From Candidatus Omnitrophota bacterium (GTDB lineage: Bacteria > Omnitrophota > Gorgyraeia > Gygaellales > Profunditerraquicolaceae): a stretch of 64,000 bases of DNA. The translations under genes and the position numbers were made by a program. The notes under the pieces are model-generated. The model had not been told where the DNA came from. It searched no databases and was given only the letters and a program-made list of their open reading frames with translations. Shown here piece after piece: positions 9,318 to 63,648 of the stretch. The first letter of the stretch is position 1. Each line of letters starts with the position of its first letter. The stretch spans positions 2,732 to 66,731 of the forward strand of contig CAINQO010000080.1 in the NCBI GenBank assembly GCA_903852325.1. The letters are read 5' to 3'.

Positions 9318-9339
9318 CTTATGCCTCCTTTAAAGTTAT

Positions 9340-9372
9340 TTTCAAACTATCACAAGTTGTGCGGCTTGTCAA
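9340..9372 (-). promoter_or_regulatory. candidate sigma70 promoter for the repeat-protein gene (TTGACA-17-TAGTTT)
   Basis: The minus strand has TTGACA at 9372-9367, and the -10 TAGTTT lies 17 nt downstream at 9349-9344. An AAGGAGG RBS sits 6 nt before the ATG. Confidence 0.4.
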
Positions 9373-9394
9373 GCTATCTATAAAACAGGAGATA

Positions 9395-9458
9395 AAGTTG
9401 TTGGCTGGGCTTGTTTTAGCCCAAGAATCAATAAAGCGCCGCTTTAACCCGGGCGCTT
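9395..9458 (-). terminator. putative intrinsic terminator at the end of bioY
   Basis: A GC hairpin (AGCGCC...GGCGCT) overlaps the last codons and is followed by a T-rich tract on the minus strand. A second small hairpin (GGGCTAAAACAAGCCC) follows. Confidence 0.35.
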
Positions 9459-9997
9459 ATCTTGGAATAAACCGCTGTTGCCAGGGAAATCTTCAGGAGA
9501 TCCCCCAGGATAAACGGGGCGAATCCCAGCAAAAATGCCTGCCCCCAGGAAGCGGAGATACTTATTTTAAGCCAAAACGTGCCGCTGAATAAAATTATAC
9601 AATCCGCAACCAATAATTTCAGAAAAACCTCCGGGGCAGCGGCCTTTTCTCTGTTCAGGAGGCTGCCGGCAAAAACAGAAGCCAGGACAAAACCGGCGAT
9701 ATACCCTCCGGTCGGCCCCAAAAGGTAAAGGCTCCCGCTTCCGGACCCGGTAAACACCTGTTGGCCGGTAAAACCCAGGAGCAAATAAGCCGACTGCGTA
9801 ATGGCCCCTAGTTTTCTTCCCAAAAGCGCAGCGCCCAGCAAGACAAAAAAAGTCTGCAGAGTAAGCGGCACAGGAGTAAACGGCAAGGGGATGCGCACGA
9901 AAGCCGATAAGGCAGTTAAAATAATAAAAGCGGTCACCGCCAAAACGCGGCAAAGCTTTTTATCGCTGATTAATTCTCTGGTAACAATGATCTCCAT
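9428..9997 (-). CDS. bioY: biotin transporter BioY (ECF S-component)
   Basis: 189-aa multi-TM protein with the LCRVLAVTAFIILTALSAFVRIPLPFTPVPLTLQTFFVLLGAALLG N-terminal pattern. Confidence 0.8.
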   Translation of the reverse strand: MEIIVTRELISDKKLCRVLAVTAFIILTALSAFVRIPLPFTPVPLTLQTFFVLLGAALLGRKLGAITQSAYLLLGFTGQQVFTGSGSGSLYLLGPTGGYIAGFVLASVFAGSLLNREKAAAPEVFLKLLVADCIILFSGTFWLKISISASWGQAFLLGFAPFILGDLLKISLATAVYSKISARVKAALY

Positions 9998-40873: not shown

Positions 40874-42394
40874 TTAAGAAGCGCTTAAAGAACTTTCCCT
40901 GAGTTTTTCTTTATCGATCTTGCCGACCCGGTTCTTCGGAAGGGCGGAACAGAATTCAAACTGGTGCGGGATCTTAAAATGCGCCAGGTGCTGGCGGAGA
41001 AAATAACGCAGGTCTTCGGTAGAAACAGTTTTCCCTTCTTTGGTGACGACAAAGGCCTTGGGCACTTCCCCGCGCAATTTATCCGCGATCCCGATCACCG
41101 CGGCCTCGGCGATATCCGGATGTTTTTGCAAGCTCGCCTCCACCTCCGGCTCAAAAACGATCTCCCCGCCGACCTTGATCATCTCTTTTTTCCTGCCCAC
41201 GATATAAAGGAAACCCTCGGCGTCAAAGCGGCCTAAATCCCCGGTGTAAAACCAGCCGTCACGGATGGTCGAGCGGGTCAGCGGCTCATCCTTAAAATAC
41301 CCCGCCGTAACTACCCAGCTTTTTACCGCCACTTCCCCCACTCCTCCTGCGGCTAGCTCCCCGCCGTCATCCGCAAGCACCTTCACCTGGATCCAGGGAG
41401 CCGGACGGCCCACGCTTTCGATATTTTTTGACCCCATCGGCAAGACTACCGTCGGGGCATTAGTCTCGGTAAGCCCCCAGCCGTTTAACAGAAAGGTTTT
41501 CGGGCAGAACTGCTGGAACCGGCGCAAAGCTTCCGGGGAATTTGAGGCGCCGAAAGTGACGATCCAGCGCAAACTGGACAGGTCAAAGGTCTCAAATTCC
41601 TTTAATTGCAGCAGCGCGTAATACATCGAGGGCACAATCCAGAAAAAATTAACTTTGTAGTTCTGGACATTCTTCAAAAAATCCAGCGGCATAAACCGCT
41701 CCATCAAAACCAGGGTCAGGCCGAAGGTAATCGTATTCTGGATATAAATCAATCCCCCTAAATGCGAGAAAGGCAAAGCGCATAAAGCGGTATCCTTGGG
41801 CCCCAGGTCGGAATTGACAAAAAAAGCCATGGATTTGGGAGGAGCATCCAGCTGGGCGTAATTAATTAAAACCCCCTTAGGCTTCCCGGTAGTCCCGGAG
41901 GTATAAAAGATTATCGCCAGATCATCATCCTTGGTCTGCGTTTTCGGGGCCGCGGCAGTTTCAGTGCCGAGCAATTTTTCAAAACTTAAAGCGCTTTCAT
42001 CTTCCGACTGGCAGGCGATAATCTTTTCCAGTAAAGGCAGCCGGGTTTTGAGTGCCGCCAGAGAAAGATTAGCCTTATGTTTAGTAACCAGGATTTTAGC
42101 TTCGCAGTGACCGAGGCAGGAAACGATCTCATCTTCAGTGAGCATAAAATCCAGAGGCACGCTGCAGGCCCCGATCGACCAGGCGGCCAAATAACTGTAA
42201 ATATATTCCGGCCAGTTGGGAAGAAAGATCGCCACTTTATCGCCGGGCTTTACTCCCAGCTTGAGCAGCGCCTGAGCAAAAGCGAAAACTTTATCTTTTA
42301 GCTGCGGAAAAGAAATCTGCTCCTGGCGAAAAATAATCGCCGGCTTAACCGGATAATCCCGGGCACATTTTTCTAATACTTCGACAATGTTCAT
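40874..42394 (-). CDS. AMP-forming acyl-CoA synthetase / fatty-acid-CoA ligase
   Basis: YTSGTTGKPKGV AMP-binding motif and a C-terminal GEIV...GRKK-type block. 506 aa. Confidence 0.8.
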   Translation of the reverse strand: MNIVEVLEKCARDYPVKPAIIFRQEQISFPQLKDKVFAFAQALLKLGVKPGDKVAIFLPNWPEYIYSYLAAWSIGACSVPLDFMLTEDEIVSCLGHCEAKILVTKHKANLSLAALKTRLPLLEKIIACQSEDESALSFEKLLGTETAAAPKTQTKDDDLAIIFYTSGTTGKPKGVLINYAQLDAPPKSMAFFVNSDLGPKDTALCALPFSHLGGLIYIQNTITFGLTLVLMERFMPLDFLKNVQNYKVNFFWIVPSMYYALLQLKEFETFDLSSLRWIVTFGASNSPEALRRFQQFCPKTFLLNGWGLTETNAPTVVLPMGSKNIESVGRPAPWIQVKVLADDGGELAAGGVGEVAVKSWVVTAGYFKDEPLTRSTIRDGWFYTGDLGRFDAEGFLYIVGRKKEMIKVGGEIVFEPEVEASLQKHPDIAEAAVIGIADKLRGEVPKAFVVTKEGKTVSTEDLRYFLRQHLAHFKIPHQFEFCSALPKNRVGKIDKEKLRESSLSAS

Positions 42395-50018: not shown

Positions 50019-50795
50019 CTATTTACCCGGGTGTTGCTGTTTAAACGGAATTACCGGCGCAGTCCAGGGGGTTTGCTGATTGATCACGGAAATCTCCAGA
50101 GGGCAGACATTGGCCGGCACGGTTAAAGCAAAACGCATCGCGTCTTCTATCGCCTCTGTCCCCATTAAACGGGAAGTATCGCTGGTAATGTCTTTAAGTT
50201 TACCGGTTAAATCCGTATCCGTCACTCCCGGCAGGATCGAAGTGACCTTGATCCCGTGGTCGCGCAGCTCCCAAAACAATCCTTTGGAAAAAGCGCGCAA
50301 CCCCACTTTCAGAGAGCTGTAAACAATAAAGTTTCTCGGGACCGGGTCGACCAGGGTGGAACCGGAAACGATATTAATGATTGCCCCGTATTTTTGCTCC
50401 ATCATATCATTGATCACCAGGCGGATCAGGCGCACATAACCCAGGTAATTGGTGTGCGCCAGCTTCTCAAAATCCTCGATCGGCTGCTGGTTAAAAGGAT
50501 ACTGGGAAGAAACTCCGGCACAGTTGATCAGAATATCCACCTTGCCGAACTTTGCCTTGGCTTTATTCACCAGGTTCTCTAAGTCTTCAAGCTTGGTCAC
50601 GTCGCAGGGAACCGGCAATACCTGGACTTTATATTTAGCGGCAATCTCCTCCGCTGTTTCTTTTAACGGGCCTTCACCGCGGGCGCCGACAACCAGGTTT
50701 ATTCCCAGTCCTGCCGCGGTGCAAGCCAAGGCTTTGCCGATACCGCGGCTGGCTCCGGTAACAATCGCTACACGTCCTTTTAAATCCGTGCTCAT
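50019..50795 (-). CDS. short-chain dehydrogenase/reductase, putative ketoreductase of the PKS-like cluster
   Basis: TGASRGIG Rossmann motif, catalytic YSSLK, and an AAGGAGGA RBS before the ATG at 50795 (the ORF-track start 50837 was trimmed). Confidence 0.8.
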   Translation of the reverse strand: MSTDLKGRVAIVTGASRGIGKALACTAAGLGINLVVGARGEGPLKETAEEIAAKYKVQVLPVPCDVTKLEDLENLVNKAKAKFGKVDILINCAGVSSQYPFNQQPIEDFEKLAHTNYLGYVRLIRLVINDMMEQKYGAIINIVSGSTLVDPVPRNFIVYSSLKVGLRAFSKGLFWELRDHGIKVTSILPGVTDTDLTGKLKDITSDTSRLMGTEAIEDAMRFALTVPANVCPLEISVINQQTPWTAPVIPFKQQHPGK

Positions 50796-50860
50796 TGAAT
50801 CCTCCTTGCGTAGAGACACACACCGGCGTAATTCCACTAAACGCCGGGTGTTGTAGAATA

Positions 50861-51295
50861 TTATTTAGCTGCTTCAATTACTTTCTTAAAGATCAGCAAG
50901 TTGTCCTTGGAATGCTTATTGATGAAACCCTCCACCTGCTCATCGGAAAACTTGGCTTTGCTGTCCATTTTAAAATGCTGGATCCAGGTTAATTCTATCC
51001 CGTCGGCCTTGGGAGTATAAAGCCAGATGATCTTCATGTATTCAAAGGGGAATTTCGGGTCGAAGCGTTCCGAATAAGTAAAATAATTCTCCTTGAATAA
51101 CAGCCTCCAGGAAATCCAGGATTTATCCTCATCGTCGGTAAGCCGGAAGGTGATTTTATTGTCTTCTTTTTTTACAATCTCGGCTTTCTTGTATTCAGCG
51201 CCGAATAACTCTGTCCAGCGCGGGATGTCATTGGAAATATTGAACACTAAATCGTACGGCGCGTTGATAATGATTGAATTACAGGTATGTCCCAA
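50861..51295 (-). CDS. SRPBCC-fold protein (polyketide aromatase/cyclase-dehydrase-like, polyketide_cyc2 type)
   Basis: IIINAPYDLVFNISNDIPRW start typical of SRPBCC cyclases. The start was reassigned to the TTG at 51295, preceded by a perfect AAGGAGG, which removes the 67-nt overlap with the upstream gene. Confidence 0.6.
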   Translation of the reverse strand: MGHTCNSIIINAPYDLVFNISNDIPRWTELFGAEYKKAEIVKKEDNKITFRLTDDEDKSWISWRLLFKENYFTYSERFDPKFPFEYMKIIWLYTPKADGIELTWIQHFKMDSKAKFSDEQVEGFINKHSKDNLLIFKKVIEAAK

Positions 51296-51309
51296 TTTAA
51301 CCTCCTTTA

Positions 51310-52110
51310 TTAATCCAACAAAGCCACTACCCTCGCCCAGGCAGCACCGGTATTTTTGATGCGAATGGGAAAACATTGGATCTTAAATCCGTAATCCGGA
51401 AGCTTTTCCAGGTTAGCCAGCCTCTCGATATGGATAAATTCTTTTTTGCGTCCAAAAAAATGCGCCGGGTAAAAAGTCTTCGGGTCCCTGGTTTTGAGGA
51501 ATTCGGCGAGCATAAAACGGTAGGGCCGGTCGATCCCCATCGTGTCCACGCCGAAGATTTTTATCCCCTGCTCCAAAAGATATTCTATCGCCGAAGGATC
51601 TACTCCGGGGTAATCCGAGAAATATTTCGGTTTGCCGTACAGCTTATCGGCGCCGGTATGCAGTAAAACAATATCTAAAGGTTTAAGCCGGTAATTTATT
51701 TTGGTTAAAGCTTCCCGGATATCCTGCTCTTTAATTACTTCATTGGGTTTTTTATGCCGCATATCCAACTTAACCCCCGGTTGGAAACAATATTCCAGGG
51801 GGATTTCGTCGGCGGTTTTAGAAGGGCGGTTCTCCGATTGGGAACCGTAATGAAAGGAATAATCCAGGTGCGTGCCGACATGCACCGGGGCGTGCACAAT
51901 TTCCAGGGAGAGGAATTCTTCGTCGGGCAGCTCTTCCTTTTTAATGATCCGCTTTCCCAGCGCGTATTTGATCTTACCGGAAAGGGTCTTGCCCATGATC
52001 ACCCGGTTAAACTTTTCCACCCCGGCTTTATGGGTTACCCTTTCGATCGCCACTTTATGCACTTCAAAGGCGGTCTCATCAATGGGTAAGCTCAAATCGA
52101 TTATGGTCAC
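51310..52110 (-). CDS. cyclase-family protein (PF04199; kynurenine-formamidase-like metal hydrolase / putative polyketide cyclase)
   Basis: HVGTHLDYSFHYG matches the HxGTHxDxPxH signature of the family. Confidence 0.7.
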   Translation of the reverse strand: MTIIDLSLPIDETAFEVHKVAIERVTHKAGVEKFNRVIMGKTLSGKIKYALGKRIIKKEELPDEEFLSLEIVHAPVHVGTHLDYSFHYGSQSENRPSKTADEIPLEYCFQPGVKLDMRHKKPNEVIKEQDIREALTKINYRLKPLDIVLLHTGADKLYGKPKYFSDYPGVDPSAIEYLLEQGIKIFGVDTMGIDRPYRFMLAEFLKTRDPKTFYPAHFFGRKKEFIHIERLANLEKLPDYGFKIQCFPIRIKNTGAAWARVVALLD

Positions 52111-52163
52111 CCGGCCTTCTCCTTATTTATCCAGCCTAGCTTCTTCTTAGGTTACAGGAAAAC

Positions 52164-52400
52164 TTACTTAGTTAATTTTTGGTCGATATTGCTGACAATA
52201 TCGTTGATCGTGCAGTTTTTGGTGATCTCTTTGGGGCTAAGCTTGACCCCGAAAGATTTTTCCAAAGCGATAACCGACTCCACCATTTCCGTAGAATCCA
52301 CCCCGATGCTGTCGATTAAAGTAGAGGCGTCTTTTAATTCCTCGATTTTTACTTTTAATAAATTGGCCAGCACTTCTTTTACTTTGTTTTTAGTGTCCAT
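52164..52400 (-). CDS. acyl carrier protein
   Basis: 78-aa acidic four-helix protein with a GVDSTE phosphopantetheine-attachment motif (GxDS). Confidence 0.7.
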   Translation of the reverse strand: MDTKNKVKEVLANLLKVKIEELKDASTLIDSIGVDSTEMVESVIALEKSFGVKLSPKEITKNCTINDIVSNIDQKLTK

Positions 52401-52443
52401 TAATCCTCCCTACCTACTCACTGCTATCTACCCGCTACTGTTG

Positions 52444-53904
52444 TTATATTTGCACTTCCCCCTTGGTCGCGGCGGCTTCCCATTTGCCTACCCCGGCCAT
52501 GACATCCTGGAAACAGAGCTTGGCCAAAGGATCGAAGTTGCTTTCCATGATCCGGTTGATCCTTCCGGGCTTGGAGAAAAACTCGCGCATGCACCAGGAA
52601 CCCAACCTGCCCAGGTCCTCGGTAGTCAGGTGGTCCGTGGGGATTACCGGATGCAGAAAATCCCACTGGCTGAAATCCACCTTTTTCGGGTCGATCCAGT
52701 GTTTCTTTAAAGCGATCCTCCACATCGGAGAATTCGGGGCGGGGGTCACGTAGCCGACCCACAACACATCCGGATCCACCTGGTCGGTAAATTCAAAACG
52801 CTGCTTAACGATCTCTTCGGTATCATAGTCAAACCCCATCATGATGTCAGCGACGATGGCGATGTCATTTCTCCTAAACATGGCGATGGTCTGCTTGATC
52901 TGGTCGATGGTAATACCTTTAGCGATCCTCTTTAACTCCGACTGCGTGGTGACTTCGATACCGAAAACCCCCATAAATAAACCCTGCTCCTTCATCAACG
53001 GCAGGATGGATTCGCAATTGACCCAGTCGATTGCCCGGCCCAAAGAAACCCATTTGATCGGGTTATTCGAAGCTTTTTTCAACTCGCAAAACTTTTGCAC
53101 TCTTTTGGGATCGACATTAAAATTATCATCCTGGATGACAACCACCTTAACCCCGTATTTGCGGTGCAGCAGGTTAAGTTCTTCCATTACCCTTTCCGGG
53201 GATTTAGCGCGCCATTTCAAAAAATCCGAAGGAGAGCGCGGGTCAAACTGGTCCCACTCATAACAAAAAGTACAGGCGGAAGGGCAGCCGCGGGAAGTAA
53301 CCATATCCACGAACGGCTTCCAATAAGTATGCCCGACATATTTATCCATCGGGAAAAGATCGTAGGCCGGAAGAGGAAGCTTGTCCAAATCTTCCATCAA
53401 CGGCTTATGCGGCCCCATGACGATCTGCCCGTCGATGCGGCTGGTGACCCCGCCCACATCTTTCAGTGGCGTATTTTTATCGATCGCCTCGATCAGGTCT
53501 CCGAATGATTCCTCTTCCCCCATGACCACAAAATCAACCGCGGGAATTTCTTCCAGGGTCGGCACCGGCATCGCCGAATACCATAAACCGCCCAGGATGA
53601 TCTTTGTCCTCGGCAGCGCTTTTTTGATCCCGATCGCCGCGTCCTTAAAATGCCGCAGCACCCCGTATCCGCCGTAACCGTGGAGCTGTTCACCCATCAC
53701 GACAATATCTGGGTTTTTCTCTTTGACCTGCTCGATCAACTGCTCCATAGGAATCTGGTCGGCTTTACCGTCGATAACCGCGACATCCTCATACCCTCTT
53801 TCCCGCACATAAGCCGCCCAATGGGCGTACAGCTGGTTTGGAGAACGGTGGATTCCATGGGTCGCCCAGGCACCTACTTTCGGCATTACAAATAAGATTT
53901 TCAT
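52444..53904 (-). CDS. cobalamin-binding (class B) radical SAM enzyme
   Basis: N-terminal B12-binding-like Rossmann region (MKILFVMPKVG...) and an SRGCPSACTFC CxxxCxxC cluster. 486 aa. Confidence 0.75.
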   Translation of the reverse strand: MKILFVMPKVGAWATHGIHRSPNQLYAHWAAYVRERGYEDVAVIDGKADQIPMEQLIEQVKEKNPDIVVMGEQLHGYGGYGVLRHFKDAAIGIKKALPRTKIILGGLWYSAMPVPTLEEIPAVDFVVMGEEESFGDLIEAIDKNTPLKDVGGVTSRIDGQIVMGPHKPLMEDLDKLPLPAYDLFPMDKYVGHTYWKPFVDMVTSRGCPSACTFCYEWDQFDPRSPSDFLKWRAKSPERVMEELNLLHRKYGVKVVVIQDDNFNVDPKRVQKFCELKKASNNPIKWVSLGRAIDWVNCESILPLMKEQGLFMGVFGIEVTTQSELKRIAKGITIDQIKQTIAMFRRNDIAIVADIMMGFDYDTEEIVKQRFEFTDQVDPDVLWVGYVTPAPNSPMWRIALKKHWIDPKKVDFSQWDFLHPVIPTDHLTTEDLGRLGSWCMREFFSKPGRINRIMESNFDPLAKLCFQDVMAGVGKWEAAATKGEVQI

Positions 53905-53917
53905 TTAATTCCTCCCT

Positions 53918-55147
53918 TTATACTTTCTCAACCACCAGCACTGAATTAATTCCTCCTCTACCGCGGGAAATAATCAAGGATTTGTTTACCTTATATTCTT
54001 TTGCTTCTTTAGCCACAAAATTCAGCCCGCTTGAAACCGGCTGGTCTAAATTCAATGTCGGCGGGACCAGGCCATACTCCATCACCTTTAAGGCAATGAT
54101 CATATCAACGGCTCCGGATGCCCCTAATAAATTACCGAACATGGATTTAGGGCAGCTGACGGGTATTTTCTTTAGGTTGTTTCCAAAAACCGATTCCAGC
54201 GCTTTGATCTCGGAATTATCCCAAAGCTCGACCGCTAATCCGTCCAAACTGATATAACCGATCTCTTCAGGATTGGCGGCGGCGTCATTCAGCGCCATCC
54301 TGATCGCCCGCGCCAGCTCTTTTCCGTCGGCAGCGCAGTTGATCCGGTCCACCCCGTCGCAGGAAGTGCCGTAACCGCTGATCAGCCCCAAGATCTTGGC
54401 GTTGCGGGATTGCACCCGCGCAATGTTCTCCATCACCACGATCCCGGCTCCCTCCCCGATAACAAAACCGCTGCGTTTAGAGTCAAAAGGCCGGTAAGCC
54501 CCCTGCGGATCCTGATTATTCTTCGAGAGGGTTCCATAAGTATTGCAGCACAACAGCGCGTAAGGAGTAACCGGGGCTTCCATTCCTCCGCCTAAGATCA
54601 TATTTAATTTATTTTTGGCTAAGACTTTCCTGGCATAACCTAAAGCCATCAGGGAGCTGGCCCGGTCACTGACCACGGTCTTACTAAATCCTTTAATTCC
54701 GTAATAAATAGAGACCTGCCCCTGGGGAGCCGCCGGAAACCAGGCGCTGGCCATGTAAGGAGAAACCCCCTCCCGGCCTTCCAGATAAAGGTCCCTTAAT
54801 TCGGTTTCGGCGTAAAGCCAGCCGCCGATGGCGTTTCCTAAAAATATTCCCACCAGATTGGGGTCTTCGTTCTTAATATCGATCCCGGCATCCTGCAACG
54901 CCGACTCGGCAGCGACTAAAGCCATGTGCGAAAAGGCGTCGATCTTTTTAAGCAGGCGCTCGGAGATATGGCTGTATTTTTCCAGGTCATCGATCTGCCC
55001 GGCGATATGCGAAGGGTAAAGGCTGGCGTCAAAACGGGTGATTTCTTTAATAAAGGAGCGGCCGCTTTTAATATTCGCCCAGAATTGCCGTTTTCCTATT
55101 CCTGAAGGGGTGACTACCCCGATCCCGGTTATAGCTATTTTTTCCAC
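53918..55147 (-). CDS. ketosynthase-fold protein lacking all three catalytic residues (chain-length-factor / KS-beta-like)
   Basis: KS fold throughout. The active-site Cys is replaced (VVSDRASSL instead of TACSS). The first His is Tyr (GYGTS) and the second His is Asn (KSMFGNLLGASGA). Confidence 0.7.
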   Translation of the reverse strand: MEKIAITGIGVVTPSGIGKRQFWANIKSGRSFIKEITRFDASLYPSHIAGQIDDLEKYSHISERLLKKIDAFSHMALVAAESALQDAGIDIKNEDPNLVGIFLGNAIGGWLYAETELRDLYLEGREGVSPYMASAWFPAAPQGQVSIYYGIKGFSKTVVSDRASSLMALGYARKVLAKNKLNMILGGGMEAPVTPYALLCCNTYGTLSKNNQDPQGAYRPFDSKRSGFVIGEGAGIVVMENIARVQSRNAKILGLISGYGTSCDGVDRINCAADGKELARAIRMALNDAAANPEEIGYISLDGLAVELWDNSEIKALESVFGNNLKKIPVSCPKSMFGNLLGASGAVDMIIALKVMEYGLVPPTLNLDQPVSSGLNFVAKEAKEYKVNKSLIISRGRGGINSVLVVEKV

Positions 55148-55217
55148 CCAGCTCTTCCTTTCTATACCTTATATCTATCTATTATACCCGCCCCCCAAAG
55201 GAAGGGCTGGGTCCAGC

Positions 55218-56480
55218 TTATCCACCGTACCTTTTGAAAACGATCGAAGAATGTATCCCGGAAAAACCGCTTGAGGTTTTCATGATCATATTCACTTTTT
55301 TGGCGATCGCCTGGTTCGGAATATAATACAAATCGCACTGCGGGTCTTTTTCCTCCTGGTTTATCGTCGGAGGCAGGATGTTTTTCTCAAAAATCATCGA
55401 AACAATGGTCATCTCCACGGCATTGGCCGCCGCCAGGGGATGGCCGATCATCGATTTCAGGGAGCTGATCGGCAGTTTGTAAGCGTAATCCCCGAAAATC
55501 GCCTTGTAAGCATTGGTTTCGAAAATATCGTTCATCCGGGTGCTGGATCCGTGGGCATTGATATAATCGATCTCCGTGGGCTTGACCCCGGAATCTTTTA
55601 GGGCCAAAGCAATGCAGGTTTCCATTGCCCGTCCGTCCGAAGGAAGGTCGGTCATATGAAAAGCGTTGCAGCTGGTGCCGAAACCTAAAATTTCACAATA
55701 GATCGGAGCGTTGCGTTTTAAGGCGTGGCTTAATTCTTCCAGGACTAAAATCCCCGCCCCTTCTCCGAGCACAAACCCGTCCCGCTTATTATCGAAAGGC
55801 CGGGAAGCTTTCTGCGGTTCATCATTATGTACGGAAAGGACATTGACCACATCAAAAGCCCCGAAGGTGATCGGGGTAAGCGGAGCTTCTGCCGCGCCGC
55901 AGATCATCACATCCTGCTCCCCGTCCTGGATACTCTCCAGGCCGAACCCCAATGAATCCGTGCCGGCGGTGCAGCCGGTAGAAATAGTATTGCAGCTTCC
56001 TTTTAAACCGAAACGCGCGCTTAACTCTATCGAGGGGGTATTAAACATCGCCGCATCATATAAATCCGGGCGGACCATCGCCGGATTGATCGGTTTTTTC
56101 CCGTCGTCGGTGACCAAAGCGAACTCTTCTTCCATGTATTTGGTGCCACAGATGGCATTAGCCAGGCAAACCCCGATCCGCTCGGGATCCTCTTTAGAGA
56201 AATCCAATTTGCTGTCTTCAACCGCCATTTTTCCGGCGGCCACCCCGAATTGCACGTAACGGTCCATGCGCATCGCCTCTTCATGGCTCAATCCCAGTTT
56301 AAAAGGATCGAAATCCCTGACCTCGGCGGCGATTTTAGTATTAAAAACCGAGACGTCAAAGCCGTCCACCCGGCGTATACCAGATTTTCCTCCGGAAAAA
56401 CCCTCCCAGGCGTTTTTCTTTCCGATGCCGTTGGGGGAGATCACCCCGATCCCCGTAACTACCACGCGTCTTTTTTCCAT
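55218..56480 (-). CDS. beta-ketoacyl synthase with an intact Cys-His-His triad (KS-alpha / FabF-like)
   Basis: TGCTAGTDS active-site Cys. The two catalytic His are in AHGSST and SMIGHPLAAA. 420 aa. Confidence 0.85.
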   Translation of the reverse strand: MEKRRVVVTGIGVISPNGIGKKNAWEGFSGGKSGIRRVDGFDVSVFNTKIAAEVRDFDPFKLGLSHEEAMRMDRYVQFGVAAGKMAVEDSKLDFSKEDPERIGVCLANAICGTKYMEEEFALVTDDGKKPINPAMVRPDLYDAAMFNTPSIELSARFGLKGSCNTISTGCTAGTDSLGFGLESIQDGEQDVMICGAAEAPLTPITFGAFDVVNVLSVHNDEPQKASRPFDNKRDGFVLGEGAGILVLEELSHALKRNAPIYCEILGFGTSCNAFHMTDLPSDGRAMETCIALALKDSGVKPTEIDYINAHGSSTRMNDIFETNAYKAIFGDYAYKLPISSLKSMIGHPLAAANAVEMTIVSMIFEKNILPPTINQEEKDPQCDLYYIPNQAIAKKVNMIMKTSSGFSGIHSSIVFKRYGG

Positions 56481-56496
56481 ATTTATTTAAACTCAA

Positions 56497-56622
56497 AATC
56501 CTAAATTCTAAATCCTAAACAAATCCAAAATCCAAAACTCAAATTTTCTAAACCGCCGTTTTGGGTTTTAAATTTAGAGTTTTGGGTTTGTTTAGAGTTT
56601 CGTGTTTAGAGTTTAGGGTTTT
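56497..56622. repeat. long AT-rich imperfect inverted repeat (~50-nt arms built from TCCTAAA/TCCAAAA-like units) between the tandem-domain gene and KS-alpha
   Basis: Left arm: ctaaattctaaatcctaaacaaatccaaaatccaaaactcaaattt. Right arm: aaatttagagttttgggtttgtttagagtttcgtgtttagagtttagg. The central loop contains ccgccg. Confidence 0.5.
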
Positions 56623-57218
56623 GTTTTATCCTCCTCTACTCTTTTGACTTTAAAAATAATATTGCCACCATCAGGGCAGGTCACCGTATCGATGGAATTC
56701 GGATCAGGCATGAAGAAAAACTTTGCCCCGAAATTCAGGGCGAACAGCGCCGGGAAAGCGGTGTGAAAAGCCGCCCCGCAGAATCCCGGGATGCATTTTA
56801 ACCCCTGGGTTTCCCATTTGTCCCCGACTTTATAGCCAAAAGCGCATTTGCCTTTGGCCTGGACCACCTCTAAAACCATTTTTTTAGGGTTAGGCCCCTT
56901 ATGATTGGGGTCGCGCGGCAATGCTTCCACTTTGCCTTGCTTATCCAGGATTTCGGCTTTAAATTCCAGCTTTCCTCCGTCCGGGCAGGTCACCAAAAGC
57001 GAACGCTGGTTGTCCCGGAACCCGAATTTTGCGCCGAAGCTTAAGGCGTAGGCAACCGGAAAAAGCGCGTGCGCCAGGCCGAGGCAAAAATGCTTGGGCC
57101 CGTGGGTGAAGTCTTCTAAAATGATCTCGTCCCCGATCTTGTAACCGTGGTAACATTCACCCATTACCTGGGTCACCGTAAGTTTTAGCCGCGGGAAGGG
57201 GGTTTTTACTTCATCCAT
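56613..57218 (-). CDS. protein made of two tandem ~95-aa Cys/His-containing domains (TIGR04076-like)
   Basis: The blocks G(E/K)C..GYK.GD, F(C/H)..A(F/L)..(AL)F.L.FGAKF and VTCPDGG..F recur in both halves. Confidence 0.4.
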   Translation of the reverse strand: MDEVKTPFPRLKLTVTQVMGECYHGYKIGDEIILEDFTHGPKHFCLGLAHALFPVAYALSFGAKFGFRDNQRSLLVTCPDGGKLEFKAEILDKQGKVEALPRDPNHKGPNPKKMVLEVVQAKGKCAFGYKVGDKWETQGLKCIPGFCGAAFHTAFPALFALNFGAKFFFMPDPNSIDTVTCPDGGNIIFKVKRVEEDKTKP

Positions 57219-57220
57219 TT

Positions 57221-58225
57221 TTACACCAGCTCCTTAGTCCTCTGGATCAATTCTTCTTTACTAAAAAACCGGTGCCCGGTTTCTACCTGGTGCACCATTT
57301 CCACCAAAACTTTATTTAAAGGCGCTTGCAGTTTGTTCTCCTCTGCCAGCCGCACGAACTCGCCGTTTAAGTAATCTATCTCGGTAACTTTACCGCGCAT
57401 AATGCTCTGCAGGATCGAGCCGTACAAGGGATCCTTGCTTAAATTATGCATCATCCCAGAGAAAATTTCCGCCGCGTGCTCGCTGGGCATGGTCGTAAAC
57501 TTGGTCAGGTTTTCGACCGGAAATCCGGGAAGGGAGACCAGATCAATACCGAGCTTATCGAAAATTTCAAAAGCCTCTTTCCAGATCGCGATGCTGATCC
57601 GGGCAATCGCAATATCCGCGAACACTTCCTGCATGCTCTTGCCAATGATCGCCGGCAAACAGTTGTTAGCGTTCACGAAGATCTTTAAATACTTCATCCC
57701 TTTAAGCTCCTGGGTGACCTGCGTGGAAAAAGCTTTATCCAGGAGCAGTCCGACGGAAAACATCTCCGGGGTGGGATGAGGGTTGAAAATGCTGCCCAAT
57801 ATCCAGTCCCCTTCGAAATTATGCACCACTTTGCCGCTTTCCAGGTTGGTGGCGCCGAACATCACAATACTGGAAATAATTTTTTCCGCCGGTAAATATT
57901 TAGCCGCCAGCTTGTCCGCCTGCACCCCGTTTTGCGTGGTCAGCAGCAGGGAGTTCTGGATCAGGTGCGCGCAATCGGAAAGCGCCCCCTCGATATCCTG
58001 GGTTTTCACGGTTAAAATTACCAGCTCCGGAAGATAGTTCAGGGTCTCGGAAATGCTTACCCGCACCAGATGGTTTCCGCGGACCCCGGAAATAGAGATC
58101 CCATGGTCATGGATGGCGTTCACGGTCGAGCCGCGGCCGACCAAAGTGACCTCTTCCCCTTTTTCCTTAAGATAACCGGCGACCAGGCAACCGATCGCTC
58201 CGCTTCCGATAACCGCGATGCGCAT
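57221..58225 (-). CDS. ketopantoate reductase (ApbA/PanE) family NAD(P)H oxidoreductase
   Basis: N-terminal MRIAVIGSGAIGCLVAGYL Rossmann motif and a C-terminal ApbA_C-like helical domain. 334 aa. Confidence 0.7.
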   Translation of the reverse strand: MRIAVIGSGAIGCLVAGYLKEKGEEVTLVGRGSTVNAIHDHGISISGVRGNHLVRVSISETLNYLPELVILTVKTQDIEGALSDCAHLIQNSLLLTTQNGVQADKLAAKYLPAEKIISSIVMFGATNLESGKVVHNFEGDWILGSIFNPHPTPEMFSVGLLLDKAFSTQVTQELKGMKYLKIFVNANNCLPAIIGKSMQEVFADIAIARISIAIWKEAFEIFDKLGIDLVSLPGFPVENLTKFTTMPSEHAAEIFSGMMHNLSKDPLYGSILQSIMRGKVTEIDYLNGEFVRLAEENKLQAPLNKVLVEMVHQVETGHRFFSKEELIQRTKELV

Positions 58226-58494
58226 TATTGTTTACCGTTTTTAGGATAACCGTATTTTTTGTAATCAAACCCGTTTTGCTCTAAGAGGCGCAGCATCATG
58301 CTGTAAAACGGGGAAGGGACATCCGAAAAAAAAGCCGCCACGACATCCTGTTCTCCCACCTCAGTGGCGCTGCGTTTGGCGGCCAGCTCGGCGGCCTTTT
58401 GCCGGACCACCGATTCAGTGATATGGCGGTGGAATACGGGAATTTTGGAGATCAATACCTTGAATTTATTTTCGGTTCCGGTTTCCCAGTTCAT
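58225..58494 (-). CDS. small PCP_red-like domain protein (resembles the C-terminal domain of protochlorophyllide reductase subunit B)
   Basis: W..KFKVLISKIPVFHRHITESVVRQKAAELAAKRSATEV..QDVVAAFF resembles the PF08369 pattern (KIPFFVR...E..AR..G...VT). Confidence 0.35.
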   Translation of the reverse strand: MNWETGTENKFKVLISKIPVFHRHITESVVRQKAAELAAKRSATEVGEQDVVAAFFSDVPSPFYSMMLRLLEQNGFDYKKYGYPKNGKQ

Positions 58495-58515
58495 TTTCGC
58501 AATTGCCTCTTTTAA

Positions 58516-58546
58516 TATAGTAAAATTTTACTATAATTTTAGTCAA
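58516..58546 (-). promoter_or_regulatory. sigma70 promoter (TTGACT-18-TACTAT) for the biosynthetic operon, overlapped by a perfect 20-bp palindrome (TATAGTAAAATTTTACTATA, 58516-58535) that is a candidate PadR operator
   Basis: -35 at 58546-58541 and -10 at 58522-58517 on the minus strand. An AAGAGG RBS lies upstream of the ATG at 58494. The palindrome covers the -10 and spacer. Confidence 0.55.
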
Positions 58547-58596
58547 GATAAACTCCTTTGTCAAGCAAATTATCCTGGAATTTGCCTATGGAAAAT

Positions 58597-59112
58597 TCAG
58601 ATTTTTTTAAGCAGGGAGCTCAAGAATGCGGACTCGGCGCGCAAAAGGCAAAGGTTATGCTCCATGATCCGCTGCAGGGGCAGCGAATTTTTTAATTCCC
58701 CGGTGGTAAACATCCGCTTGATCCCGGAAGATATCTTCGCCAGGATCTCCAGCCGTTTTTCCAGCCTGCGGCGGGCAAGCGCCGGCTGCAGAAAGCCCAG
58801 AAAATACAGGCTTAAATCGAGAGTAAACTGCGGGCGCTTAAAATCCAGGAGGTTCTTGTTCAGCAATACCTCAAACCGCTCCTTGCCTTTGGCGGTTAAA
58901 CAATAAACCAGCCGCGGCGGCCTTTTGCCTTTTTTCTCGACGCGCTTGGCAAGCAAACCTTTTTTTTCTAAGATTCTTAAGGGATAATATATCGATTTGA
59001 GCTGGACACCGGCGAACAGGGAAAGGATCTCCCGGACTTTAACTTTGATCTCGTAACCGTGTTTGGGGCTTTGACGCAAGAGGCCTAGAAGGATCAGCTC
59101 CTGATCGATCAT
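58597..59112 (-). CDS. PadR-family transcriptional regulator
   Basis: N-terminal winged-HTH [24 protein letters not shown]...[12 protein letters not shown] signature. Its start overlaps the accA stop by 4 nt. Confidence 0.75.
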
Positions 59113-60056
59113 GCGGTAACACCCATTGCCCTGAATTTCTTATACCTTGATTCCAACAGTTCTTTTTTGTCCAGGGACTCCAGTTCTTTAAGCATCCTTA
59201 AAACCGTTTCTTTGACGCTGGAAGCGGTTTTCTTCACGTCCCGGTGCGCCCCGCCCAAAGGTTCCGAAACCACTTCGTCGATCAGCCCCATCTTCAGCAG
59301 GTCCGGAGCGGTAAGTTTTAAAACCTCGGCGGCCTTGGGGGCCTTGGCCCCGTCCTTCCAGAGGATCGCCGCGCATCCCTCCGGGGAGATCACCGAATAA
59401 TATGAATTTTCTAAAACCGCCAGCCGGTCCGCCACCCCTACCCCCAGCGCTCCGCCGGAGCCGCCTTCGCCGATAACCACCGCGACGATCGGCACGGTAA
59501 AACTCATCATTTCCCTTAAATTAAGGGCGATCGCATGGGACTGCCCGCGCTCCTCCGCACCGATGCCCGGGTATGCCCCGGGGGTATCGATAAAAACCAC
59601 GACCGGGATATCAAACTCTTCCGCCATTTGCATTAAGCGCAAAGCTTTACGGTAACCCTCCGGGTGCGCGCAGCCGAAATTACGTTTCAAATTTTCTTTG
59701 GTATCCCGGCCTTTTTGGTGGCCGATCACCATCACCTTCCTTTTATCCAGCTTGGCCAGCCCGCAGATCATCGCTTTATCGTCGCTAAATAACCGGTCCC
59801 CGTGCAGTTCCACAAAATCCGTCATGATCATGCTGATATAATCCAGGGTATACGGGCGCAGCGGATGGCGGGCAATCTGCACTCTTTGCCAGGGGGAAAG
59901 GTTGACGTAGGTATCCTTCTTCAGGGATTCCAATTTATCGTCGAGCTTTTTGACCTCGGAAGAGAGATCGATCTTTTTCTCCGCCATAAAGGTCTTGAGC
60001 TCTTGAATTTTTTTCTCTAGCTCGACGATCGGTTTTTCAAAATCCAGTCCGGCCAT
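59109..60056 (-). CDS. accA: acetyl-CoA carboxylase carboxyltransferase alpha subunit
   Basis: 315 aa with the [13 protein letters not shown] oxyanion region and an ACCase CT-alpha fold. Confidence 0.9.
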
Positions 60057-61353: not shown

Positions 61354-61947
61354 TTAATTAACCGGCTTGGCCTGCTCCACGGGCGGGGCGGGAATTACTT
61401 CAATCTTGATCTTGTCGGAAGTCGAACGGCCGTCTTTAATCAGGAACCCCTGGTTACCCGGCATTTCTAAACCCAGGTCTTTACGTTTATGGGTCCTTAA
61501 TTCTCTTATGGCCTTGCGCAGTTCGAGTATCGATCCCAATTTAAACTTATACTGCTCGTTTTCCGTATAAATACGCTCATGGGCCCTGATCAGCGCTTTA
61601 TTTTCCGCTTTTAACACGGAAAATTTGGCGTTTACTTTATCCAGGTCATCCTTGGCCTTGGTGTTATCCCGGAAAAGACGGCTCATCCTTTCCTTGCTTG
61701 CCTTTAGGTTAGCTTTCAGGTAAGTATTTTTATCCGTCAATTGATCATTCAGTTCTTGTTCTTTCCCCAACTCCTGCAATAAGTTTTGTTTCTCCTGAAC
61801 CAAAGAAGTCACCTGGTCCTGAGATTGCGTCAGATTGTCCTGCAGGCGCAGTCTTTCCTTTACTTCCGCCACATACCTGACCATGCTGAAAACAGCGATC
61901 CCCAGCAGTAAAACCAGCCCCAAATTCTTAATCCTGTCTTTAGCCAT
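61354..61947 (-). CDS. membrane-anchored coiled-coil protein (hypothetical)
   Basis: N-terminal TM helix followed by heptad-rich Q/E/K/L sequence. Confidence 0.35.
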   Translation of the reverse strand: MAKDRIKNLGLVLLLGIAVFSMVRYVAEVKERLRLQDNLTQSQDQVTSLVQEKQNLLQELGKEQELNDQLTDKNTYLKANLKASKERMSRLFRDNTKAKDDLDKVNAKFSVLKAENKALIRAHERIYTENEQYKFKLGSILELRKAIRELRTHKRKDLGLEMPGNQGFLIKDGRSTSDKIKIEVIPAPPVEQAKPVN

Positions 61948-62103
61948 AAGGTTATATTATATAACCCCGCGGCTAAAAATCAAGGATTTTAATCTCTTTA
62001 GCTGCCCCCATGAGTTCACCCGGGCATCCGCTAAGCGGGCCGATTTTAAAAACCGGGTTAGATTCTCCTTATTATTACGTCTATTGGCTTAAGGAGAAGA
62101 CAA

Positions 62104-63648
62104 ATGCTCTCAAAAACATATAGTTTCGGCATTTTGGGGCTGGAAGCTTACCCGGTGGAGATTGAAATCGATGTTGCCGGCGGCCTGCCGAGAGTCAATC
62201 TGGTGGGGCTGGCGGACGCGGCCATAAAGGAAAGCAAGGAACGGGTGCGCGCGGCAATCAAGAATTCCGGATTCACCTGGCCGGCGCAAAGAATCACGGT
62301 AAATCTTGCCCCTTCGGATATCAAGAAAGAGGGGGCTTGCTTTGACCTGGCGATTGCCATCGGGATCCTGGCGGCAACCGGGCAAATAAGCAATGCCCCC
62401 CTTAATCATTACTCTTTCCTGGGAGAACTGTCTCTGGACGGACAATTGCGCCCGGTTCACGGTGTGCTGACCATAAGCCTGACTTTAGCGAAACTGCCCG
62501 AAAAAAACCTTATTTTACCGCGGGAAAACGCCAGAGAAGCGGCAATCGTCCCGGAAATATCCGCCTGGCCCTTTAAAAGCTTAAAAGAAGTGGCGCAATT
62601 CTTAACTGACCCGGACGCTCATCCACCGCTTAAATTGGACGCTAACCAGGCACTCGGCAGCAGCCCGAATTATGCGCTGGATTTTTCCGAGATCAAGGGG
62701 CAGTATTTTGCCAAAAGAGCGCTGGAGGTCGCTGTTTCCGGCGGACACAATATTATCCTGGTCGGCCCGCCGGGAAGCGGAAAAACCATGCTGGCCAAAA
62801 GGATCCCCACGATCATGCCCGGACTTTCCCTGAAAGAAACCCTGGAAATAACCAAGATCCATTCGGTGGCCGGCACATTAATGAATAATGACGGCTTGAT
62901 CACCGCGCGGCCTTTCCGCTCGCCACACCACAGTATTTCCGATATCGCTTTGATCGGCGGAGGCAGTACCCCTAAGCCCGGGGAGATAAGCTTGGCGCAT
63001 TACGGGGTCCTTTTCCTTGATGAGCTGCCGGAATTCAACCGTAAAGCCCTGGAGGCACTGCGCCAGCCCCTGGAAGACAACCTTATCTGTATCAGCCGCG
63101 TAAAAAAGACCCTGGTCTTCCCGGCCTGTTTTATTTTAGCCGCGGCGCTTAACCCCTGCCCCTGCGGTAATTATTTTAATCCCCGTAAAATTTGCCGCTG
63201 TAATCCGGCAAAGATCAGGAATTATTTAGGCCGGATTTCCGCGCCCCTGCTGGACAGGATCGACCTGCATATTGAGGTCCCGGCGGTAAAATATCAGGAA
63301 TTAACCGATACTCAGGACGCGGAATCTTCCGCCGCGATCAGGCAGCGGGTAGAAAATGCCCGCGCTATCCAGCGGGACAGGTTTTGCGCCGGCGGAGGGA
63401 ATCCTAAAATATTTTGTAACGCGCAAATGCCGAATAAAATGGTCAGGGAATTTTGTATTTTGGACAAGGAGGCCGGGGAACTGGTGCGCCTGGCGATAGC
63501 AGAGCTGGCTTTATCCGCGCGGGCGTATGATAAGATCCTCAAAGTCAGCCGCACCATAAGCGATCTGGCGCAAAGCCCGATTATCCGTTCCGAGCATGTT
63601 GCCGAAGCGATCCAATACCGCTCCCTTGACCGTTCACTTTTGGATTAA
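62104..63648 (+). CDS. comM: YifB/ComM-family Mg-chelatase-like AAA+ ATPase
   Basis: Lon-like N-domain, Walker A (GPPGSGKTM), a zinc-ribbon-like CPCG...CRC segment and a C-terminal ChlI-like domain. 514 aa. Confidence 0.85.
   Translation: MLSKTYSFGILGLEAYPVEIEIDVAGGLPRVNLVGLADAAIKESKERVRAAIKNSGFTWPAQRITVNLAPSDIKKEGACFDLAIAIGILAATGQISNAPLNHYSFLGELSLDGQLRPVHGVLTISLTLAKLPEKNLILPRENAREAAIVPEISAWPFKSLKEVAQFLTDPDAHPPLKLDANQALGSSPNYALDFSEIKGQYFAKRALEVAVSGGHNIILVGPPGSGKTMLAKRIPTIMPGLSLKETLEITKIHSVAGTLMNNDGLITARPFRSPHHSISDIALIGGGSTPKPGEISLAHYGVLFLDELPEFNRKALEALRQPLEDNLICISRVKKTLVFPACFILAAALNPCPCGNYFNPRKICRCNPAKIRNYLGRISAPLLDRIDLHIEVPAVKYQELTDTQDAESSAAIRQRVENARAIQRDRFCAGGGNPKIFCNAQMPNKMVREFCILDKEAGELVRLAIAELALSARAYDKILKVSRTISDLAQSPIIRSEHVAEAIQYRSLDRSLLD

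Follow-up and report, generated by a model that had tools for sequence, protein, structure and literature searches.

The window, the whole 64-kb stretch of DNA analysed here, carries a conserved ten-gene operon on the minus strand. Its first gene (58225..58494, minus strand) encodes an 89-aa helical protein, DUF2621/PCP_red-like by domain match, and the remainder (50019..58225, minus strand) encodes a PanE/ApbA-like reductase, a TIGR04076 protein, two KS proteins, a B12-radical SAM protein, an ACP, a cyclase, an SRPBCC cyclase and an SDR. Profile matches agreed with the preliminary description of this operon as a PCP_red-like/PanE/KS operon, and the gene order was matched in two other loci (L199 and L201). 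From the sequences of its products the cluster looks like a type II FAS/PKS-like system of lipid or polyketide type. Upstream lie padR (58597..59112, minus strand), which encodes a 171-aa PadR subfamily-1 regulator identified by Pfam, a structure model and signature residues, and accA (59109..60056, minus strand), which encodes the acetyl-CoA carboxylase carboxyltransferase alpha subunit (ACCA match, 504 bits). The padR start codon overlaps the accA stop codon (ATGA). padR is the sole regulator gene adjoining the operon, and Pfam scans of all genes between 32.7 and 62 kb found no transcription factor inside the cluster. The product of the first operon gene was considered as a DNA-binding autoregulator and was rejected, as its AlphaFold model is a helical bundle (pLDDT 86) with no significant PDB match (best E-value 0.39, to insignificant histone-like helices).

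Between padR and the operon lies the proposed operator, a perfect 20-bp palindrome, TATAGTAAAATTTTACTATA (58516..58535, no strand assigned), supported by its sequence and by its conservation in relatives. The end of padR is 61 nt away, in keeping with the adjacency noted before. The palindrome has two 10-nt arms with no spacer, exactly as had been claimed, and is the longest perfect palindrome in the window. By itself it stands only marginally above chance, since an arm of at least 10 nt arises in 9 of 200 shuffles of local composition; it is the conservation in relatives that places it far above chance. The site can be read as ATAGT-AAAATTTT-ACTAT, a 5-N8-5 arrangement in which AAAATTTT forms a central A-tract, and the form of the box proposed for genome scans is ATAGTAAAATTTTACTAT. 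TATAGTAAAATTTTACTATA has a single match in the window at up to three mismatches (shuffles expect 0), and searching with the core TAGT-N8-ACTA or by best Hamming match returned the same one site. In related Omnitrophota loci the 20-mer was found solely at promoters of this kind. This indicates that it is not a generic repeat. The exact 20-mer is also present in approximately 27 unrelated metagenome contigs.

Twenty-six related Omnitrophota genomes were picked solely by their PadR protein, and all of them carried the same operon downstream of padR. The 20-mer was identical in 21 of these genomes, and the other five had one or two edge mismatches, confined to palindrome positions 1, 16, 19 or 20. 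Positions 2–15, 17 and 18 were invariant, and the 16-bp core TAGT-N8-ACTA (58518-58533) was intact in 25 of the 26. Mean pairwise identity was 0.97 for the palindrome versus 0.33–0.41 for the adjacent non-coding flanks, among genomes whose PadR identity falls to approximately 56 %. Judged from these alignments, the palindrome sequence is under selection and the flanks have diverged.

The palindrome is preceded by a strong promoter match consisting of a −35 hexamer, TTGACA (58559..58564, minus strand), a 17-nt spacer and a −10 hexamer, TAAAAT (58536..58541, minus strand), which abuts the palindrome with a gap of 0 nt in the window. Both hexamers are conserved, and TTGACA-17-TAAAAT (58564-58536) scores 11 of 12. 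The pattern TTGACA-16/17-TAnnnT was detected in 26 of 27 sequences examined, with TTGACA and TAnnnT in all 26 detected promoters, TAAAAT in 23, and spacers of 17 nt (24 promoters) or 16 nt (two). TTGACA-17-TAAAAT is a conserved sigma-70-type promoter consensus in this group. The preliminary description had instead placed the promoter at TTGACT (58541..58546, minus strand), 18 nt from TACTAT (58522..58517). This pair is present and scores 9 of 12, but its TTGACT runs into the real −10 box and lacks conservation, with TTGATT, TTAACT, TTTACT or nothing at that place in relatives. The second TTGACA, previously offered as an alternative −35, proved to be the conserved −35 paired with TAAAAT, and lies 18 nt upstream, start to start. 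The location of the palindrome also had to be revised, from within the spacer and −10 region to after the conserved −10 box, over or past the predicted start site. By promoter geometry, transcription in the window is predicted to start approximately 6–8 nt past the −10 box (58528..58531, minus strand), inside the upstream arm of the palindrome. A GAGG read from the sequence (58506..58509, minus strand), 11 nt upstream of the first operon gene's ATG, may be a ribosome-binding site; its spacing and sequence vary in relatives.

The same promoter and palindrome module precedes a second type of operon, encoding an acyl-AMP ligase, an MMPL-like exporter and a LolA-like protein, in seven related contigs, and it also precedes copies of the cluster at other genomic positions. 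A trans-acting factor is therefore implied. The gene contents of the two target operons together look like synthesis and export of an unusual lipid or polyketide. Across the window, the 26 relatives and the ligase promoters, the palindrome begins 0–15 nt past the −10 box, with two classes of promoter having gaps of 0–3 nt or 11–15 nt, and in one genome (L005) the −10 box overlaps it by 1 nt. It was never upstream of the −35 hexamer in the compared promoters. Because of this placement, we infer a repressor rather than an activator position. Conservation and promoter position bear out the earlier proposal that the biosynthetic operon has a true cis-regulatory element at its promoter. The element is placed as repressor operators typically are, and the palindrome is very probably such an operator.

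A site so close to the −10 box might instead be an intrinsic promoter or DNA-structure element (a discriminator, a signal in the initial transcribed region, an A-tract bend or a cruciform) that tunes RNA polymerase with no dedicated repressor. The palindrome abuts the −10 box in the window, contains −10-like hexamers (TATAGT, TAAAAT and TACTAT) as well as the central AAAATTTT A-tract, and in two unrelated AT-rich contigs (L105 and L152) the internal TAAAAT could itself be a −10 box, 17 nt after TTGACA. However, an element in contact with the polymerase would hold a fixed register, whereas the distance to the −10 box varies over 0–15 nt with an invariant sequence, and a perfect dyad conserved base for base marks a site for a dimeric protein. 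An intrinsic element is thus very unlikely. The palindrome could also act as RNA, through a 5′-UTR hairpin that influences how stable the mRNA is or how the first gene is translated. Promoters with an 11–15 nt gap would transcribe the whole palindrome near the 5′ end, and an 8-bp hairpin is possible with a z-score of −4.4 against shuffles. This hairpin is nevertheless weak (−4.6 kcal/mol), and nearly all of its pairs are A-U. In the window and the other promoters with a 0–3 nt gap the full hairpin cannot form, because the predicted start lies inside the upstream arm, and the 5′ UTR lacking that arm folds at only −0.9 kcal/mol. Covariation is absent, the conserved feature being sequence rather than pairing, loop and flanking positions included, and the start codon lies anywhere from 11 to 55 nt away. 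The palindrome region had no Rfam family match. A role as an RNA hairpin is highly improbable, and the palindrome acts as DNA.

To relate the palindrome to padR, 64 cluster promoters were counted that had been sampled independently of padR and that carried the exact 20-mer with at least 700 nt of upstream sequence. padR was immediately upstream in 44 of these promoters and was not nearby in the other 20 (~30 %), which follow T2SS pseudopilins, a HisKA kinase with a receiver-only protein, or AcrB with a P-II-like protein. A nearby padR was also missing at all seven ligase promoters. accA was paired with padR in 80 of 80 loci, with and without the cluster, and was immediately upstream of padR in every locus with upstream sequence. 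For 54 of these 80 loci there was no cluster downstream and no palindrome within 4 kb on either side. The coupling to accA in all 80 loci, 54 of them with no palindrome, indicates that padR is not dedicated to the cluster, and the idea of a cluster-specific regulator gene had to be given up. The palindrome travels with the cluster and not with padR. Adjacency of padR is spread over the whole PanE-based cluster tree and looks like an ancestral arrangement with repeated losses, not one with repeated gains; it could thus be inherited synteny. No autoregulatory palindrome was found within 4 kb upstream of accA-padR in the 80 loci, so these loci show no sign of the autoregulation that is frequent among PadR proteins. 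A degenerate pattern and a de novo screen for 5-Nk-5 palindromes were used to look for an alternative PadR site near accA-padR in these loci; apart from the known palindrome they brought up just a MarR box, which is unrelated, and the promoter region of the accA operon in the window (61930-62120) contained no similar dyad by eye. Two further ideas about these loci were rejected. Genes of ~150 and ~430 aa downstream of padR in cluster-less loci were considered as accB and accC and proved to encode MarR and TolC-like proteins. Insertion of a T2SS block between padR and the cluster was also considered, and T2SS-adjacent copies and padR-MerR-ExeA loci showed no overlap in either direction in the available sequence.

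This distribution is consistent with an operator that is bound by another dimeric transcription factor encoded elsewhere (MarR, XRE, TetR or similar), in which case the position of padR would merely reflect an ancestral accA-padR-cluster order. The palindrome tracks the cluster and the ligase operon, is missing at most accA-padR loci and lacks a padR neighbour at many of its promoters, while accA-padR itself has no autoregulatory site. In addition, an identical 20-mer precedes small XRE-family genes in unrelated CPR-like contigs, so that other HTH families plausibly use such a site. Nevertheless, no other regulator gene was consistently linked to the palindrome in any context, and neither the window nor the 80 Omnitrophota loci contained a homologue of the XRE protein associated with the 20-mer, which led to the rejection of an XRE binder in Omnitrophota. 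The geometry of the site, 5-N8-5 over 18 bp with a GT/AC core, is that of a PadR-dimer target (PMC3506622, PMC5728393), and the reading head of PadR is as invariant as the site. Another factor is a real possibility but, on this evidence, a less likely one.

The PadR protein itself matches Pfam PF03551 (PadR) with 52.8 bits (cutoff 27) over residues 8–81, covering profile positions 1–74 of 75. The signature residues of the family are present (HGY20E, SIY42Y and R64/R67), with Y20, Y42 and Y43 invariant and R67 at least 90 % conserved among 27 orthologues. The wHTH reading head hardly varies across 80 PadR orthologues, which fits a protein that would read an invariant site. The AlphaFold model (mean pLDDT 74) has helices at residues 4–12, 20–34 and 44–50, a wing at 54–72 and C-terminal helices at 100–107, 110–137 and 144–170. 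According to this model, the candidate repressor is a two-domain PadR subfamily-1 protein with an N-terminal wHTH and a helical C-terminal dimerisation domain. Its best PDB matches are all PadR-s1 proteins (Rv0047c, smu.1604c, B. subtilis PadR-DNA, BC1756, VanR and AphA), with low TM-scores (0.3–0.4) that are probably due to domain orientation in the monomer model.

The predicted domain organization is shared with B. subtilis PadR, which acts on padC (PDB 5X11; PMC5728393). The B. subtilis PadR dimer reads an 18-bp palindrome via Tyr20, Tyr42 and Lys67 (PMC5728393); both tyrosines and a basic wing residue are kept in the Omnitrophota protein, while the base-contacting residues H38, S39 and Q40 are replaced by L38, K39 and S40. 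As in known PadR operators, the site at 58516-58535 is an 18–20 bp dyad with half-sites of 4–5 bp, a spacer of 8 bp and a GT...AC core, and it overlaps the target promoter, where a repressor role is expected. Canonical PadR operators, that of LmrR among them, have ATGT/ACAT approximately 8–10 nt apart, with degenerate variants known in the family (PMC3506622). The TAGT/ACTA of the palindrome shares only GT/AC with this half-site, and the extended half-site is ATAGT here compared with CATGT in B. subtilis. Since degenerate PadR operators are known, the non-canonical half-site lowers the strength of the operator assignment without excluding it. Gene arrangement and targets differ as well. The Omnitrophota padR is co-transcribed with accA, whereas known PadR genes are standalone or divergent from their target, and a FAS/PKS-like cluster and a ligase/exporter operon take the place of the detoxification enzyme or efflux pump of known PadR systems. 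By analogy with these systems, a PadR-family repressor is a reasonable candidate binder. In the set of operator, regulator and target proposed in the preliminary description, operator and target are supported by conservation, and the pairing of regulator with operator is what we infer from adjacency and geometry.

Taken together, the palindrome would be the operator of a dimeric winged-helix repressor, placed just past the −10 box of TTGACA-17-TAAAAT, a strong promoter of sigma-70 type that would drive the conserved type II FAS/PKS-like operon. The most likely binder would be the PadR subfamily-1 protein whose gene lies 61 nt upstream, in translational coupling with accA, and each of its monomers may read one ATAGT half-site across the 8-bp A-tract spacer, as Bacillus PadR does on CATGT-N8-ACATG. 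A bound dimer would cover the region from just past the −10 box to approximately +14 in the window, and approximately +6 to +25 in the second promoter class, where it would block open-complex formation or promoter escape. A small-molecule effector, perhaps an acyl thioester, a lipid or a pathway product, may bind between the two domains of PadR and release the DNA. Because the module also precedes the ligase/MMPL-like/LolA-like operon, the box may mark a small lipid-related regulon. This whole explanation, including PadR as the candidate binder of the operator, carries moderate confidence.

The Omnitrophota are uncultivated, and full-text literature searches found no paper on their transcriptional regulation. 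The locus provides a concrete and experimentally tractable regulatory unit for the phylum, with a promoter consensus, an operator conserved across deep divergence, a candidate regulator and at least two target operons. If the link to PadR is true, it adds a PadR-family member to the short list of bacterial regulators of lipid synthesis, and the box becomes a handle for regulon prediction in any Omnitrophota genome. If the link fails, the box remains a specific bait for the real regulator.

A wider and decidedly speculative suggestion is that the accA-coupled PadR is a phylum-wide regulator of lipid homeostasis in Omnitrophota, a PadR-family functional analogue of FapR or FabT that would sense malonyl-CoA, an acyl thioester or a pathway lipid. 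The 20-bp box would then mark a regulon of the KS/B12-radical-SAM and ligase/MMPL/LolA-like operons, and translational coupling with accA would link the amount of repressor to the supply of malonyl-CoA. The half-sites of FapR, TAGTA/TACTA, resemble those of the palindrome, and FapR too is genomically tied to fatty-acid synthesis genes. However, it has a DeoR-type HTH and a hotdog domain and belongs to a family other than PadR, its site is 17 bp with a different spacing compared with 20 bp here, and it autoregulates, whereas no autoregulatory site was found here. The likeness to FapR is one of functional analogy only and not of membership. FapR is a malonyl-CoA-responsive repressor of lipid synthesis in Bacillus and Staphylococcus, and fapR has been reported only in some Gram-positive genera (PMC5052256). 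PhaQ, a PadR-like PHB-responsive repressor (TIGR02719), and VanR, the vanillate repressor (PDB 5Z7B), gave weak sequence or fold matches to the Omnitrophota PadR (for PhaQ, 21 bits versus a cutoff of 139). Their operators, targets and gene arrangement are all unlike those described here, but both are sensors of lipophilic or aromatic metabolites that control small metabolic operons.

The 20-mer at 58516-58535, TATAGTAAAATTTTACTATA, is a perfect palindrome (10+10), as stated in the preliminary description, and is the longest one in the window. Arms of at least 10 nt were reached in 9 of 200 shuffles in which local composition was kept, so the palindrome alone is only marginally significant. A search for further copies, proposed earlier as a way to other regulon members, gave a single match in the 64-kb window with up to three mismatches allowed, and the core TAGT-N8-ACTA also occurred once. 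All surrounding genes lie on the minus strand. accA (59109-60056) is followed by padR (58597-59112), whose start overlaps the accA stop (ATGA), and then by a 102-nt intergenic region containing the palindrome (58495-58596). The ten-gene cluster comes next, encoding an 89-aa DUF2621/PCP_red-like small helical protein (58225-58494), a PanE/ApbA-like reductase (57221-58225), a tandem-domain TIGR04076 protein (56613-57218), two ketosynthases (55218-56480 and 53918-55147), a BchE/HpnJ-like B12-binding radical SAM enzyme (52444-53904), an ACP (52164-52400), a cyclase (51310-52110), an SRPBCC cyclase (50861-51376) and an SDR (50019-50837). This order (50019-58494; also L199 and L201) is kept across Omnitrophota. 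The radical SAM enzyme weakly matched a 'ladderane-type lipid' model (71 bits, cutoff 360).

The promoter first proposed, TTGACT-18-TACTAT with the palindrome over its -10 box and spacer, is present with a score of 9/12. However, TTGACA (58564..58559)-17-TAAAAT (58541..58536) scored 11/12, TTGACT is not conserved in relatives, and the conserved -10 box TAAAAT precedes the palindrome rather than lying within it. Two promoter classes differ in the distance from the -10 box to the start of the palindrome: 0-3 nt in the class to which the window belongs (gap 0), and 11-15 nt in the second. No terminator-like hairpin was found between padR and the TTGACA-17-TAAAAT promoter. The gap of 0 nt in the window (58536/58535 junction) compares with 2 nt (TA) in most of the closest relatives (L001-L013 compared); a 2-bp deletion between -10 box and palindrome has apparently occurred in the window, which would have shifted the operator relative to the promoter.

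Conservation was investigated through PadR, which has more than 1,600 relatives; among the best 120, all organism-named ones were from Candidatus Omnitrophota. Scanning a genome collection with an alignment of PadR proteins provided 80 loci (53-87 % identity). The small gene and PanE-like gene followed padR in only 26 of the 80, and the palindrome was located between padR and the small gene in all 26. The 20-mer was identical in 21 of these, with one mismatch in two and two mismatches in three, confined to positions 1, 16, 19 or 20. In the remaining 54 loci, the best match in about 8.5 kb had at least four mismatches, and TAGT-N8-ACTA occurred once outside known sites across the padR loci. Phylogenetic footprinting of intergenic regions anchored on the palindrome gave mean pairwise identities of 1.00 for the -35 box TTGACA, 0.96 for the -10 box TAAAAT and 0.97 for the palindrome, against 0.41 for the spacer, 0.39 for the 20 nt upstream of the -35 box and 0.33 for the 20 nt downstream of the palindrome.

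An exact scan of metagenome contigs identified at least 118 loci with the 20-mer, and the following counts apply among the matches listed. The largest group (77 loci) had the small gene beside the palindrome, or padR adjoining at a contig end; padR was directly upstream in 44, absent from at least 700 nt of upstream sequence in 20, and could not be assessed in 13 with too short an upstream sequence. Promoter and palindrome were intact at the padR-less cluster loci, where the upstream genes encoded T2SS pseudopilins and a GspK-like protein, a HisKA kinase and a receiver-only protein, or AcrB and a P-II-like protein; no DNA-binding regulator was found among them. In promoters of the 0-3 nt gap class, a conserved (G/T)ATTAATT element is set 2-4 nt ahead of the -35 box irrespective of the upstream gene, and may serve as an UP-like element or as another protein-binding site. 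The element was seen in most of the cluster loci without padR (e.g. L199 at 9925-9935) and in L001, L003, L004, L007 and L013, is degenerate in the window (58567-58574), and includes the stop codon of the GspK-like gene in T2SS-adjacent copies.

A TTGACA-(16-18)-TAnnnT-palindrome module with neither small gene nor padR detected was found at 14 loci, six of them cut by a contig end. Seven (L089, 3153-4695; L121, minus orientation; L092; L140; L186; L187; L191) preceded a different operon encoding a 501-aa AMP-binding ligase, a 775-aa MMPL/RND-like membrane protein and a 293-aa LolA-like protein, the last two labels being our own sequence reading rather than database matches. This operon is probably a second regulon member, and its predicted products suggest lipid activation and export. 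Ligase locus L121 and cluster locus L107 have a common upstream AcrB and P-II-like context, indicating the same lineage. An AMP-binding ligase in the window (40874-42394, minus), 61 % identical to the putatively palindrome-controlled ligase of other genomes, had no detectable palindrome upstream; it directly follows an aldehyde dehydrogenase gene, and the window contains no MMPL gene. In the fourteenth locus (L097, about 2350-2431), a 10-bp inverted repeat, ACAACTTACG...CGTAAGTTGT, comes after the module, with no ORF within 150 nt; the locus may be degraded, or it may encode a small RNA or a leader.

In six further loci (L091, L134, L148 at 9219-9467, L181, L188 and L192), the 20-mer separates a TATAAT-like box from the start codon of a 72-aa XRE-family gene. 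These contigs, with genes for sortase and large surface proteins, resemble Patescibacteria; no XRE protein homologues were found in the window or the 80 Omnitrophota loci. The arrangement resembles an autoregulatory operator of the same sequence in an unrelated lineage and protein family. About 21 miscellaneous loci, mostly on very AT-rich contigs, are probably unrelated to the operator. Contig L132 (27 % GC) has the exact 20-mer at 137-156 and a near copy, TATAGTAAAACTTACTATA, about 60 nt downstream with similar flanks, suggesting a repeated element unrelated to the operator of Omnitrophota.

The perfect dyad is kept base for base against neutral flanks, always lies downstream of the -10 box, varies in register relative to it and precedes at least two operons at several genomic locations. 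This indicates that the palindrome is very probably the operator of a dimeric repressor acting in trans. Action at the RNA level is unlikely: the hairpin is weak (-4.6 kcal/mol), the predicted start in the 0-3 nt gap class falls inside the upstream arm, leaving a 5' UTR of only -0.9 kcal/mol without that arm, and there was no covariation and no Rfam match.

It is moderately probable that PadR binds this operator. padR is the sole regulator gene near the cluster, no other transcription factor being found within or beside it. Its product matches Pfam PadR, is modelled as a wHTH with a helical C-terminal domain, and has as closest solved structures two-domain PadR proteins throughout, including the Bacillus subtilis PadR-operator complex. 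The family's DNA-binding hot spots are Tyr20, Tyr42 and a basic wing residue (PMC5728393); in the orthologue alignment Y20 and Y42 are invariant and R67 nearly so. The reading head is nearly invariant in 80 of 80 orthologues, matching the invariant site and thereby supporting PadR. Canonical operators consist of ATGT/ACAT repeats with about 8-10 nt between them (PMC3506622), and symmetric reading of 18 bp is described for the B. subtilis dimer (PMC5728393). The site here, ATAGT-N8-ACTAT, is alike in geometry and GT/AC core; however, its half-site is not ATGT, which counts against PadR. padR adjoins 44 of 64 cluster promoters sampled independently of padR (among the matches listed), and in a PanE-based tree the clusters next to padR are distributed over the entire phylogeny. 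On the same tree, adjacency looks ancestral, lost at least seven times rather than gained repeatedly, and could thus be a case of inherited synteny. The constant partner of padR is accA rather than the cluster, 54 of 80 padR loci are without the palindrome, 20 of the 64 cluster promoters are without a nearby padR, no palindrome copy for autoregulation was found at accA-padR loci, and an XRE protein of an unrelated HTH family apparently uses the identical 20-mer elsewhere. The first operon gene was rejected as an autoregulator, its product having no recognisable DNA-binding fold.

With PadR as the repressor, we infer a mechanism in which RNA polymerase would use TTGACA-17-TAAAAT and a PadR dimer bound to the dyad would mask the discriminator, the start site and the initial transcribed region, with read-through from accA-padR possibly blocked as well. 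The DNA would be released when an effector enters the interdomain pocket and opens the dimer, the mode described for B. subtilis PadR (PMC5728393). Through the translational coupling of padR to accA, the supply of repressor would follow acetyl-CoA carboxylase expression, and precursor supply could be linked to a malonyl-CoA-consuming specialised pathway and the ligase/exporter operon. Judged from sequence, the system is a putative PadR-type repressor-operator arrangement in an unusual context, with its regulator inside an accA operon, a lipid/polyketide regulon as targets and a non-canonical half-site. In function it is comparable to the FapR system, whose conserved inverted repeat is situated inside lipid-gene promoters or immediately downstream of them (PMC5052256), but it does not belong to the FapR family. 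No publication on PadR or on this regulation in Omnitrophota emerged from full-text literature searches, and the model offers a ready-to-test regulon and promoter for an uncultivated phylum.

In every locus of the 80 with upstream sequence, accA lay immediately upstream of padR, overlapping (ATGA) or abutting it, a coupled pair (window 58597-60056; L001-L080) counted in 80 of 80 Omnitrophota loci. To our knowledge, no PadR regulator with such a permanent link to acetyl-CoA carboxylase has been described. The MAG STB_134 has accA-padR on two contigs, L003 and L033 (PadR 87 % and 75 % identical to that of the window), with cluster and palindrome on one and absent from the other, reflecting a genuine duplication or a bin of mixed origin. 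The genes after padR vary and include the ketosynthase cluster, a MerR-like gene with an ExeA-like ATPase, and others. In more distant Omnitrophota (L043, L044, L047, L048, L054, L056, L057, L063, L072, L074 and L075), a MarR regulator and a TolC-like protein follow, with TTGACA and a conserved dyad of another sequence, TTAATAnnnTTAACnATTAA, ahead of them. This dyad, presumably the MarR operator, lies 60-130 nt past the padR stop in most, and about 570 nt (L048) and 1070 nt (L056) past it in two.
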